Made by a program: the position numbers and the translations under genes. Below the pieces are notes generated by a model that was not told the DNA's origin, did not search any database, and saw only the letters and a list, made by a program, of their open reading frames with translations. Positions 1 through 30,859 of a stretch of 30,859 nt of DNA are shown here, one piece after another (position 1 is the first letter of the stretch; every line of letters starts with the position of its first letter). Source of the DNA: a virus (taxonomy: Duplodnaviria; Heunggongvirae; Uroviricota; Caudoviricetes); the IMG/VR virus record IMGVR_UViG_2740892488_000014, one strand, 5' to 3'.

Positions 1-513
1 AACGGCAGTTCGCGTGACGAGCCAAATCAGGTGTGGTGCGGTGATGTGACCTATATCTGGACGGGTAAGCGCTGGGCGTACCTCGCCGTTGTTCTCGACC
101 TGTTCGCAAGAAAACCAGTGGGCTGGGCCATGTCGTTCTCGCCGGACAGCAGGCTTACCATGAAAGCACTGGAAATGGCATGGGAAACCCGTGGTAAGCC
201 CGTCGGGGTGATGTTCCACAGCGATCAAGGCAGTCATTATACGAGCAGGCAGTTCCGGCAGTTACTGTGGAGATACCGGATCAGGCAGAGTATGAGTCGG
301 CGTGGAAACTGCTGGGATAACAGCCCAATGGAGCGCTTCTTCAGGAGTCTGAAGAACGAATGGGTGCCGGCGACGGGCTATGTAAGCTTCAGCGATGCAG
401 CTCACGCAATAACGGACTATATCGTTGGATATTACAGCGCACTAAGACCGCACGAATATAATGGTGGGTTACCACCAAACGAATCGGAAAATCGATACTG
501 GAAAAAACTCTAA
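1..513 (+). CDS. IS3-family (IS911-like) transposase OrfB, integrase-core C-terminal part; 5' end truncated by the window edge
   Basis: The reading frame is open from base 1 and continues ORF 31..513. The protein has the DDE-integrase-core signature of IS3-family OrfB, and its tail ...[14 protein letters not shown] is followed by an IS911-type IRR. Confidence 0.9.
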
Positions 514-543
514 CTCGGTGGCCAGTTTTTGTTGACCACTTCA
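1..543 (+). mobile_element. Right end of an IS3-family (IS911-like) insertion sequence; IRR roughly 509..543, ending ...CCACTTCA
   Basis: The terminal sequence ctaactcggtggccagtttttgttgaccacttca is the reverse complement of the IS911-type terminal IR TGAAGTGGTCAACAAAAACTGGCCACCGAG, matched from memory. It ends with CA, as IS3-family elements do. Confidence 0.7.
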
Positions 544-1784
544 ATCACAGCCTGTAAGGGCAATGGCGAGTAAGAGTACTGAGTATTTTAATCTCATGAA
601 TTCCCTTTAGAGTAAGGATTGGTTTTTAAGACGCGGTCTGTAATCAGTCCCGAGAGCTACAGTAAACAACGCTGAGCACTGAACGCATCACAGGTAAGGT
701 AAAAGGTGATATCGGCAAAGGCTGTGAAACCTTTAATTCAACAGATGGGAACGGTATGCGCAGGATCCTGTAACGACGCTCCCAAAACCGGAAACCTGTA
801 AGGCATGTTTTCGCTGCTGAACTTAATATACGAACCTGCACTATCATGAACATATTTTATATCGTTATACCCCGAGTGATTGTGCCCGGCAATGGATAGT
901 GTCCTGGAGGAACTATTTCTACTGTAAAAGGTAGATATTTAATTTCAGTTTTGAATTATTCCCTGCTGTTAATAACAATGGCTGTATATGGCACCGAGTA
1001 GGCATTTTTTCGCTTACTGAAGGGCAGCTGTGAGCGAGGAACAGACTTTCCCTACTTCGTTGAGAGTACACCTAGTACAATCAAGGCTAAATGATAAAAA
1101 TATACAAAATATCATATTTATGATATATATAATGGCATTAATCTTATTCTTGGATTACGTTGAAAGGGTAATATTATATTTGTGTAACATAGTTTAGATA
1201 ACAATGCCGTTATGGGGGGGGAAAGACATTTCAACATATTAGCTTTGTATCTAACGCTCATGTAGATCTCGATTTTGAACTTAAAGAACAATTATTTTTT
1301 AGAGAGCAAGGTATTTTTGGGGAACAAAAACATAAAGTAATGGAGAGAGGAGAATGTATCAAAAAATCATCGATTTAATTTAGATTGTCCGTATAGTTGG
1401 GGGTAAGTCGAATCGCTGGGCTACATGGAATATTGTGTCAAGTAAAAATATATTTCAATCTTGCAATAACCGATTGTTGAAAATAATGTCAAATCTTAAT
1501 GGTGAATGGGGAGAATATAATAAACATGAGTCGATATTATGCAAATGGATTTAAATATTTTATACCCGAAGACATAGGGTTTCGAGAGTTCGATGAGACT
1601 ACTTTGAATGCTTTCGAATTTGCTGGCTAAAACATATAGGTTATATCTTACATCTGTTTGTAATGGAGCGTAGATGCGACAAGCTACACCATAATAATCA
1701 TATTATGATATATTGTTAAGTTGTTATGGCATTAAATAAAATTATGTCATTTTGTTAACCAAGCAAGAATCAAAGGACTTTTAG

Positions 1785-2099
1785 ATGGGTACGGCATTAA
1801 TTTCAAGCTTTATTAGTGGTGCAATAGCTATAATCTCTATTGCTATATCTACTTATAATCAGAATAGAATAAACAAGCTCAATGAATCACTGGATGTAAG
1901 GAGAAAACATCAGTACTATATTGAACCGTTAATTCGCTCAGCTTCAGACTTACAAAGCCGTATTTATAATATATTAGAATTGGGGTTCATTGAAGAGTTT
2001 TATCATAATGGGAATAAGCGCCAACAAGATTATGTTATCAACAATACTGTTTTTTCTTTTTTTCCCAGTTTTTTGCATGGACAGAAGCTGCCCGCATAG
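1785..2099 (+). CDS. Hypothetical protein with an N-terminal TM helix; possibly the 5' part of a longer gene fragmented by homopolymer indels
   Basis: 104-aa ORF in the AT-rich island with a hydrophobic N-terminus LISSFISGAIAIISIAI; it ends in a region of T5/T7/T6 runs. Confidence 0.3.
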   Translation: MGTALISSFISGAIAIISIAISTYNQNRINKLNESLDVRRKHQYYIEPLIRSASDLQSRIYNILELGFIEEFYHNGNKRQQDYVINNTVFSFFPSFLHGQKLPA

Positions 2100-2136
2100 A
2101 CATTCAATACCTTAGCCTAGAAAAAAAATAAAAAAA

Positions 2137-2352
2137 ATGAGGGAGTTTATTAGATTACAGAACAATATTAACTCATTAATCCAAACAGACGTCTTTGGTC
2201 AGTATTTTATGTTTTTCATAGGAGAGCAGAGAGCTATTGCAGAAAAGATGCTGATATCAACAGATACTGGATTTGATTGCATAGGTTACGGCAGTTTCAC
2301 AAAGGAAAATTGCTTTATCAATGAGCCATTTTTTTTTAGATTTAAACAATGA
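2137..2352 (+). CDS. Hypothetical protein; possibly the middle part of the same fragmented AT-rich gene
   Basis: 71-aa ORF that immediately follows the A8 A8 runs and ends in a T9 run. A further 41-aa ORF follows at ~2363..2489. Confidence 0.25.
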   Translation: MREFIRLQNNINSLIQTDVFGQYFMFFIGEQRAIAEKMLISTDTGFDCIGYGSFTKENCFINEPFFFRFKQ

Positions 2353-28997: not shown

Positions 28998-29422
28998 CAA
29001 TGAGTGATGCAATAAACGGTGCTGAGGATATCATGCTCGGCCTGGGTGATTTCATTTTTGCTATATCAACAGTAGCGTACAACAAACTGCAACGTAGTGA
29101 CGCCTGGCGCTGGGCTCAGCAAACACGATTCGGGAAAAACGACGCGTTGCAGATAACCGGACGACCGAACCCCACAATTACTATCGATGGAAAGATAAAC
29201 GCTTTATTTCTTGACGGGTGCGGCGTCGGCCTGTTGACAGATTTGCGAGCGCTCGGGAACACGGGAGAACCCCAGCAGCTAGTGCTGGGGACCGGGGAGG
29301 TGAAAGGGTACTGGGTGCTGCGAGAACTAACTGAAACGCAAAACAGCTTTTTGATGGGCGGAACACCTAAATCGCAGGACTTTTCACTCACGCTCGAATA
29401 TTATGGAGCTTCGCTAGATTAA
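28994..29422 (+). CDS. Tail protein, P2 gpU-like, 142 aa
   Basis: Collinear with P2 U (...LG.F.F........YQ.LQR...WR.......G......G...D.I...G......GG......L...A..G....L..G.G...G.FVI..I.ET.S.F...G.P....F.L.L). Confidence 0.85.
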   Translation: MTMSDAINGAEDIMLGLGDFIFAISTVAYNKLQRSDAWRWAQQTRFGKNDALQITGRPNPTITIDGKINALFLDGCGVGLLTDLRALGNTGEPQQLVLGTGEVKGYWVLRELTETQNSFLMGGTPKSQDFSLTLEYYGASLD

Positions 29423-29597
29423 TACAAAATCAAGCGCTACCAGAGCACTTAACAAGTATAAAAATAATAAAAAAAAACTACGAACATAAATGTAAAACAA
29501 CCTGATGGTATTTTTTTTTGACGCCGAAATACTAATACCTCTCCGACTACTAAAATTAATTCTCATTATGAAATCCTTTTAATTAATGGGGCCCCAA

Positions 29598-29811
29598 ATG
29601 ATTACATACACTACACGGGACGGTGACCGTCTCGATCAGATCTGCCTTGCGGTCTACGGGAGAGCGTCAAAAACGACAGAGACTGTTTTATATCAGGTTT
29701 CGAATTACGGCGTAACGGATATGTGTGCCGTGTTTCGTGCTGGAGAAAAAAATTGTTTTACCAGATATCGAACCAGAGCCGGTTAAAAAAGAAACGCAAT
29801 TATGGGATTGA
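29598..29811 (+). CDS. Tail protein X-like (LysM-like), ~71 aa; frameshifted at an A7 run (~29746-29752)
   Basis: MITYTTRDGDRLDQICLAVYGR....ETVL matches P2 X (M.TF.LQGDTLDAICVRYYGRTEGVVETVL). A7 read as A6 continues ...AGEKIVLPDIEPEPVKKETQLWD*, like the P2 X C-terminus ...GTAVELPDVQTAPVAETVNLWE. Confidence 0.75.
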
Positions 29812-29814
29812 TGA

Positions 29815-30859
29815 ATGAGTGATTACGTAAATACTGGCGTGGAGGCGTGGAAACCTAATTTTTATATATCTGCTGATAATAAAAACATCACGGATAAAAT
29901 AAGAAAAGGTTTGATCAATATCACGCTGACAGATTACGGCGGCTCCAGTAAACAGACAGACGAACTCCGCGTAGCAATAGTTTCTGAAACTCTGAAAATT
30001 CCGGCCCGCGGAGTAAAAATCAGTATTGGGCTCGGTTTCGGTAATCAGATAATTGATAAAGGGATATACATCGTTGACGGTGCTAGCAGTGGCGGTGAAC
30101 CCCGGGTAGTTGATTTCACAGCAAAAGCGGCTCCGATGAACGCAGCAAAAGGATCTCCGACAGTTCAGAGCAAAAAGACTCGTTCCTGGAGCGACGTCAC
30201 TGTCAGCGATATCGTTGCGACAATAGCGAGCGATAATGGGCTAAAACCACGCGTATCAAAGCGGTTTGCAGACAATGTTATCACGCAACTCGATCAGGTC
30301 GGCGAGTCAGATATGCACCTGATGTCGCGGCTCGCAACGAGATTCGATGCGGTGAGTAAACCCGCGGGCGGGTACTGGATATTCCTGCCGCGCGGCGCGG
30401 GCGAATCTGTTAGCGGTGCTCCGCTCCAGCACTACACGCTAACTCGTCGTGATAACTCCAGCTGGGGCTATTCGAGAAATGGACAAAGTGGCGATAGTGG
30501 TAGCGGTGGCGAAAATCCGGAACCGACGTATCTGATTAAATATCACGACACAGCAACTGGGCAGATCAAAGAATTGCGGACAAGGTAGTGGCGGCGATCC
30601 TGTCATTGAATGGCCGGCAGTTGAGCCGTCGCTCGACGCAGCGAAAGAAGCTGCACCAGGGCTCAAGGGCGGTGCAGCTAAAAAAGAGTTCTCTATGACG
30701 TACACGACGCCAGCGACGCTCGATTTAGTGTCGCTGACAGCAGAATGCAAAGTCACAACTCAAGGTTTCGGGACCGAGGAGGACCGGGACTGGACTATCA
30801 ACACACTGAGTCTGACGCTCGCTGAAAACGGTTTTTCGGTTCGGCTGTCTCTGGAGTAA
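29815..30859 (+). CDS. Tail protein D-like (P2 gpD / Mu gpN DNA-circulation family), ~348 aa; frameshifted near 30555-30586, not in a long homopolymer
   Basis: ORF 29815..30588 matches P2 D through most of its length. The +1 frame from 30536 to the TAA at 30857-30859 gives the conserved D C-terminus (...GFGTEEDRDWTINTLSLTLAENGFSVRLSLE). Confidence 0.85.

Follow-up and report, generated by a model that had tools for sequence, protein, structure and literature searches.

Is the phage-like sequence deposited as IMG/VR virus record IMGVR_UViG_2740892488_000014 a prophage in decay, or a largely intact one whose genes were broken only while its DNA was being read and assembled? The record, all 30,859 nucleotides of which were analysed and are here called the window, is on the evidence of its sequence a copy of a common Escherichia coli prophage that lies adjacent to yecA in genomes of the ST131 type, and a series of its genes, including those for the large terminase, the major capsid protein and the tail sheath, are split by one-base shifts in reading frame. 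We put at about 90% the probability that 18 one-base insertions in its A/T homopolymers are sequencing or assembly artefacts, superimposed on real prophage defects.

The prophage is well represented among finished genomes. Of 5,426 RefSeq complete E. coli genomes, 442 match window positions 11500-30859 at approximately 100% identity (megablast), strains labelled O25b:H4 and ST131 among them, and the same region is found in four deposited 'phage' records, vB_EcoM-705R4, -720R5, -569R10 and -783R5. The prophage of strain 4/4 (locus L001) served as the main reference, and a closer relative, S65EC, was compared over window positions 544-11302. Aligned to L001, the window falls into two collinear blocks, 544-5699 and 7585-30859, with 20 one-base gaps and one substitution over 28.4 kb; aligned to S65EC it has 10 insertions and no substitutions over 10.7 kb, and the interior of the insertion sequence ISEc53 is free of differences. 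From 544 to 30859, the differences from finished genomes amount to 18 one-base insertions and one one-base deletion, all in A/T runs of at least 5; a polymorphic G tract, the insertion of ISEc53 and 0-1 substitutions make up the rest. The insertions and deletions (indels), followed by the G tract, are these:

2050-2055, plus strand: T6 (reference T5), +1, in the hypothetical gene WP_000536231
2057-2063, plus strand: T7 (reference T6), +1, in WP_000536231
2121-2128, plus strand: A8 (reference A7), +1, in WP_000536231; also +1 in the Logan contig ERR13868052
2130-2137, plus strand: A8 (reference A7), +1, in WP_000536231; also +1 in ERR13868052
2329-2337, plus strand: T9 (reference T8), +1, in WP_000536231; also +1 in ERR13868052
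3376-3383, minus-strand gene: T8 as read on the plus strand (reference T7), +1, in the hypothetical 201-amino-acid gene WP_001138663 (called the '2-TM gene' in an earlier note on this DNA)
3836-3841, minus-strand gene: A6 as read on the plus strand (reference A5), +1, in the ImmA/IrrE metallopeptidase gene
4848-4854, intergenic: T7 (reference T6), +1; also +1 in ERR13868052
10024-10030, plus strand: T7 (reference T6), +1, in the 3TM holin gene (9929 to about 10203)
10087-10093, plus strand: T7 (reference T6), a second +1 in the 3TM holin gene; the same double insertion is present in the very noisy ERR13868052
12896-12901, plus strand: T6 (reference T5), +1, in the large terminase gene TerL (12111-13974)
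15859-15866, plus strand: T8 (reference T7), +1, in the gpC / S49 head protease gene (15778-17086)
18313-18319, plus strand: A7 (reference A6), +1, in the gene for the major capsid protein E (17474-18509)
19288-19295, plus strand: T8 (reference T7), +1, in the FII-like head-tail joining gene (start 18960); also +1 in the Logan contig ERR13669416
25436-25444, plus strand: A9 (reference A8), +1, in the tail sheath gene (24922-26425)
28423-28428, plus strand: A6 (reference A7), -1, in the tape measure gene (27358-28997); the only deletion
29469-29477, intergenic between U and X: A9 (reference A8), +1; the run is -1 in the Logan contig ERR1739590
29511-29519, intergenic: T9 (reference T8), +1; the run is -1 in ERR1739590 and in the Logan contig ERR5984423
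29746-29752, plus strand: A7 (reference A6), +1, in the gene for tail protein X; the run is -1 in ERR1739590
1214-1221, intergenic between the lprI remnant and WP_000536231: G8 tract (G9 in some finished genomes), polymorphic

The earlier note, made from the letters alone, had listed ten homopolymer sites and placed them correctly, each being a one-base difference from intact reference copies; the alignment to L001 also bears out that nine of those ten are +1 insertions and that the tape measure run is the only deletion. Its count of eleven or more frameshifted genes was right as far as it went, the homopolymer indels breaking eleven genes (one five times and one twice) and the tail gene gpD bringing the total to twelve, but the list was incomplete, and nine further events had escaped it: the five in WP_000536231, the second holin insertion and the three intergenic insertions. 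No Pfam family matches the gene for WP_000536231 (232 amino acids; window approximately 1785-2488, L001 5189-5887), in which long A/T runs (T5CT6, A7TA7, T8) are unusually abundant; this accounts for its share of five of the 18 insertions. The G tract, the twentieth gap, is G8 in S65EC, strain 21221 and CM142695 and G9 in strain 4/4, strain 23366 and ERR13868052; being polymorphic among finished genomes, it was left out of the error count; either the tract truly varies or assemblies are repeatedly ambiguous there.

How little else separates the window from its relatives becomes apparent on in-silico repair. With the 18 insertions, the deletion and the G tract reverted, and with ISEc53 and one copy of its target duplication removed, window 544-30859 is the same as L001 3947-32353 except for a single-nucleotide polymorphism (SNP), which S65EC also has, so that the earlier description of the broken genes as otherwise pristine holds. 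The window has the gene order of the yecA-adjacent prophages of strain 4/4, S65EC and O25b:H4-ST131 strains and is identical to them after repair bar that one SNP; it shares their gpD frameshift and, with some of the strains, the ISEc53 insertion. Unlike these references it has 18 extra bases in A/T runs and a tape measure run that is one base shorter, and the ISEc52 element at its left edge occupies a site where none of the references examined has it.

The indels are distributed in a very particular way. A/T runs of at least 5 make up 3.3% of the compared sequence yet hold 19 of the 19 indels (P ~1e-28), and the direction is insertion in 18 of the 19 (binomial P = 8e-5 against 1:1). Counted per A/T run in the reference sequence, the hits rise with run length:

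Run length 3-4: 0 of 837 hit (0%)
Run length 5: 3 of 103 hit (2.9%)
Run length 6: 6 of 47 hit (12.8%)
Run length 7: 6 of 17 hit (35%)
Run length 8: 4 of 4 hit (100%)

Runs within coding sequence were not spared, with 16 hits vs. 13.2 expected there and 3 vs. 5.8 expected in non-coding sequence (Fisher P = 0.57). Extrapolated to 11 kb of flanking chromosome, the window's per-run rates give approximately 0.34 indels per kb, or approximately 1,750 per genome, mostly in coding sequence, a load that is not plausible for a viable isolate.

Finished genomes carry almost none of these alleles. Queries of 80 nt across individual sites gave the following counts in RefSeq complete genomes:

Capsid A7: 0 of 443
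Sheath A9: 0 of 417
Tape measure A6: 0 of 427
gpC T8: 1 of 441 (CM190152, with the PGAP label 'frameshifted')

Among the 442 complete genomes, the best match has a single window indel, this same gpC T8 in CM190152, and the other matches listed have none; gpC T8 occurs in GCA_024546825.1 as well. In IMG/VR, capsid A7 was found in no contigs and A6 in 6. The source record itself did not turn up in the phage collection, the RefSeq complete E. coli genomes, IMG/VR, the GTDB representatives or the exact-protein index. The truncated proteins were also looked up exactly in an index of 153 billion gene positions, from which eight of the eleven (those of capsid, FII, TerL, gpC, ImmA, WP_001138663, X and WP_000536231) are absent; the other three are present. 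Every carrier locus retrieved was aligned to L001, and five data sets proved to be similarly affected:

Logan ERR13868052: 15 kb, 22 insertions, 0 substitutions
GCA_024546825.1: 20.6 kb, 11 insertions, 1 substitution
Logan ERR13669416: 15.5 kb, 4 insertions, 1 substitution
Logan ERR1739590: 6.7 kb, 8 deletions, 0 substitutions
Logan ERR5984423: 4.4 kb, 4 deletions, 1 substitution

ERR13868052 has seven sites in common with the window, lacks four window sites and has many of its own, and ERR1739590 and ERR5984423 contain deletions only, several of them at runs where the window has an insertion (sheath A8, the two intergenic 8-mers and the A6 of X). As these alignments present them, the indel sets of the carriers are non-nested and partly overlapping, each data set having its own sign and 0-1 substitutions, which is the behavior of measurement noise; inheritance would instead give nested sets with accompanying substitutions.

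The insertions are thus regarded as artefacts because they are confined to runs, rise with run length, do not spare coding sequence, come without substitutions, are absent or nearly so, at the sites tested, from more than 400 finished genomes and are mirrored in noisy data sets. Two layers would then be superimposed in the window. The technical layer would consist of eighteen +1 errors in A/T homopolymers of true length 5-8, presumably introduced at base calling or in the consensus by a sequencing and assembly process sensitive to homopolymers and biased to insertions; they would break ten genes (WP_000536231 five times, WP_001138663, ImmA, the 3TM holin twice, TerL, gpC, capsid, FII, sheath and X) in addition to falling in three intergenic runs; these ten genes are almost certainly intact in the real DNA. 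The biological layer comprises a +1 A in gpD inherited by most carriers, ISEc53 with its 8-bp duplication and ISEc52 at the left edge, and the A7-to-A6 deletion in the tape measure gene may belong to it as well.

Homopolymer-length errors are described in PMC8812927 (see also PMC12007338) as the commonest residual error in long-read-only bacterial assemblies. The window resembles the spurious 'pseudogenes' produced by such errors in long-read-only or flow-based (454, Ion Torrent) assemblies in its run confinement, its length trend, the equal treatment of coding and non-coding sequence, the dataset-specific direction and the otherwise perfect genes, and differs in being biased to insertions (18:1) and affected in A/T runs only. 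Run confinement, length dependence, lack of substitutions and blindness to coding status are all seen here, and at most sites the allele is also private to the assembly, the exceptions being tape measure A6 and sheath A9. The phenomenon is a member of the well-known spurious-pseudogene class, on a well-sampled prophage, and no new biological feature.

Several points weigh against a purely technical origin. That origin is inferred rather than observed from reads; what the comparisons show directly are the positions, the run-length dependence, the absence of the alleles from finished genomes and their recurrence in other noisy data sets. Dependence on run length is also a property of real replication slippage and cannot by itself separate the two. 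In addition, two of the alleles recur elsewhere. Tape measure A6 is the sole difference from L001 in the 14.4-kb Logan contig ERR6876163, which was found in 8 samples, and GCA_964044565.1 has it too, on a gpD-intact background with the 8-mers unaltered. Sheath A9 is the only indel in the 16.8-kb Logan contig SRR25438603, with 4 similar places besides; it is also present in GCA_024546825.1 and ERR13669416, and the same run is A7 in ERR1739590. Since both window alleles occur in otherwise clean, independent assemblies, at least the long tape measure and sheath runs may truly vary in nature. The earlier note had regarded identical frameshifts in other strains as an observation that would speak against error, and such frameshifts do exist for tape measure A6 and in part for sheath A9, with gpC T8 in a single finished genome and capsid A7 in none. 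The tape measure A7-to-A6 change may be a genuine allele, inherited by the source strain or recurrent, and the A9 of the window's sheath gene is most likely an error, though the allele may exist in nature.

These same observations are the basis of a mixed explanation, in which error accounts for most of the insertions but three long coding runs (sheath A8, tape measure A7 and gpC T7) are genuinely hypervariable and the window's alleles there are real. The near-clean contigs SRR25438603 and ERR6876163, along with GCA_964044565.1, favor it; set against them are the RefSeq counts for sheath A9, tape measure A6 and gpC T8 and the fact that the tape measure run is +1 in one data set (GCA_024546825.1) and -1 in five, as might be expected of noise at a long run. 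We consider this explanation possible but unlikely. There is only a slim chance that the three runs go further and act as hypermutable tracts by which tail and head genes are switched on and off in ST131 populations in nature; if they did, part of the apparent noise would be true polymorphism, produced by slippage in a prophage that is domesticated or defective. It is also highly improbable that programmed slippage on the A/T runs, by the ribosome or during transcription, allows the split open reading frames (ORFs) to be decoded, with the genes functional as written, and we give that idea almost no credence. Slippage can be promoted by A or T homopolymers, and programmed frameshifting is used by tailed phages in their tail-chaperone genes. 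Nevertheless, more than 400 relatives encode each of these proteins as a single ORF with the run one base shorter, three of the hits are intergenic and the split arrangement is conserved in no relative, as it would be at a recoding site; programmed frameshifting was rejected on the grounds that the relatives' ORFs are intact.

Could all the indels be real, the product of slippage in a mismatch-repair-deficient mutator host or of relaxed selection on a defective prophage? In vivo, the slippage rate climbs exponentially with run length (PMC8510543), a real gpD frameshift and IS insertions are already present, so that selection on this prophage may be relaxed, and tape measure A6 and sheath A9 are found in otherwise clean assemblies. 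The mutational spectrum is nonetheless wrong for a mutator. Mutation-accumulation lines of mismatch-repair-defective E. coli gave 30,061 substitutions vs. 5,324 indels, an expected indel fraction of 0.15 (PMC8510543), and 19 indels with 0-1 substitutions depart widely from it (P ~4e-15 for at least 19 of 20); it is on this ratio of indels to substitutions that a mutator origin is rejected. Reality of all the indels would moreover imply the genome-wide load of approximately 1,750 calculated above and one gene hit five times without a substitution, and it sits badly with alleles that, one shared site excepted, occur in none of 417-443 finished genomes and with noisy sets elsewhere that are non-nested and partly of opposite sign at the same runs. 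We regard it as very improbable, and return to artefact as the preferred origin of the 18 insertions.

The break in gpD is of another kind:

30582-30583, plus strand: AA (A in the intact allele), +1 A, not in a run, in the gpD gene (29815-30859)

The window reads GGACAAGG here and the intact allele GGACAGG, which agrees with the earlier placing of this break outside the long runs; tblastn with the intact gpD of Hafnia phage yong2 and Citrobacter phage Chris1 (373 codons) likewise indicates one frame change, at 30585-30599. The gene is thereby divided into an N-terminal ORF of 257 amino acids and a C-terminal remnant extending to the final base of the window. Approximately 429 RefSeq complete genomes have a 1045-nt gpD region identical to the window's, and a 1044-nt allele, annotated as an intact 347-amino-acid protein, is carried by Z247, KE26, AH20J067, OZ040274, MEI3O-23 and more divergent copies. 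That the gpD break is a further artefact was rejected, hundreds of finished genomes carrying the same one. To judge from these alleles, the +1 A is a real inherited frameshift in most carriers. A lesion shared by descent, with outgroups intact, is seen for gpD alone and for none of the 18 insertions. In this, and in its IS insertions, the window is like genuine prophage pseudogenisation, with the gpD frameshift spread across approximately 429 genomes and intact copies in basal or related elements; unlike it, the homopolymer insertions are not shared by descent and have no accompanying substitutions.

The earlier preference for error over decay is accordingly sound for the 18 insertions and wrong for gpD, with the tape measure deletion undecided, and its statement that a decaying prophage would not look like this was too strong in view of the real damage done by the gpD frameshift, ISEc53 and ISEc52. 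The prophage does decay; the homopolymer insertions are no part of that decay. In the same way, its advice to treat pseudogene calls as provisional is apt at the homopolymer sites, but gpD should be kept as a genuine pseudogene.

The two insertion sequences, and the genes that one of them carries, lie as follows:

1-543, plus strand: 3' part of the IS3-like ISEc52, with an integrase-core ORF at 31-513 (Pfam rve/rve_3), abutting the prophage at the lprI remnant
5700-7584, minus strand: ISEc53, 1877 bp, with inverted repeat GGGTCTTCCCC, plus the second copy of its 8-bp target duplication ATAAATAT
5728-6948: ISL3 transposase, within ISEc53
6967-7485: ClbS/DUF1706 (ClbS/DfsB-like) passenger gene, within ISEc53

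ISEc53, of the ISL3 family, is complete, sits in the early-late intergenic region of the prophage and contains no indels; the identical insertion is found in S65EC, Ec55, S103EC and AREA_487, most carriers being without it. The ISEc52 portion is 99.6% identical to annotated copies in loci L004 and L009. At its positions 13 and 17, less than 20 nt from the window start, a single C has been lost at each of two CC dinucleotides; these losses are not of the homopolymer type and may reflect either errors at a contig end or genuine variation among IS copies. Both the ISEc53 insertion and the ISEc52 edge are real structural features.

The remainder of the prophage follows the annotation of L001, where the block terminates beside yecA:

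Early/immunity region: LprI, hypothetical genes, ImmA/IrrE
Next genes: Q, two holins, endolysin
Lambda-like head module: TerL, W, portal, S49/gpC, decoration protein, major capsid, FI, FII
P2-like contractile tail: V, W, J, I, fibre, sheath, tube, chaperone, tape measure, U, X, D

The window starts inside ISEc52, its last base falls precisely on the stop of gpD's C-terminal fragment, and it may be an excised prophage prediction. That it is as a whole a short-read contig bounded by IS elements is unlikely, since it spans a complete copy of the multi-copy ISEc53. Of the four 'phage' records mentioned above, ON470624.1 ('Escherichia phage vB_EcoM-705R4', 'complete phage genome') contains the host gene yecA together with a truncated ImmA at its end. 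Because host yecA is included, records of this type are predicted prophages rather than virion or packaged genomes, and they provide no evidence of inducibility.

Several public data sets of this prophage are similarly noisy, and a frameshift common to two assemblies at a long run is accordingly no proof of its reality. Artefact and decay can be told apart without reads by comparing many finished relatives, tabulating run length and coding status and looking up the exact truncated proteins. For curation, the consequence is that ten genes would be miscalled as pseudogenes, with the tape measure gene an eleventh, undecided case, and the prophage scored as heavily degraded, although no lesions in it are well supported other than the frameshift in gpD and the IS insertions.

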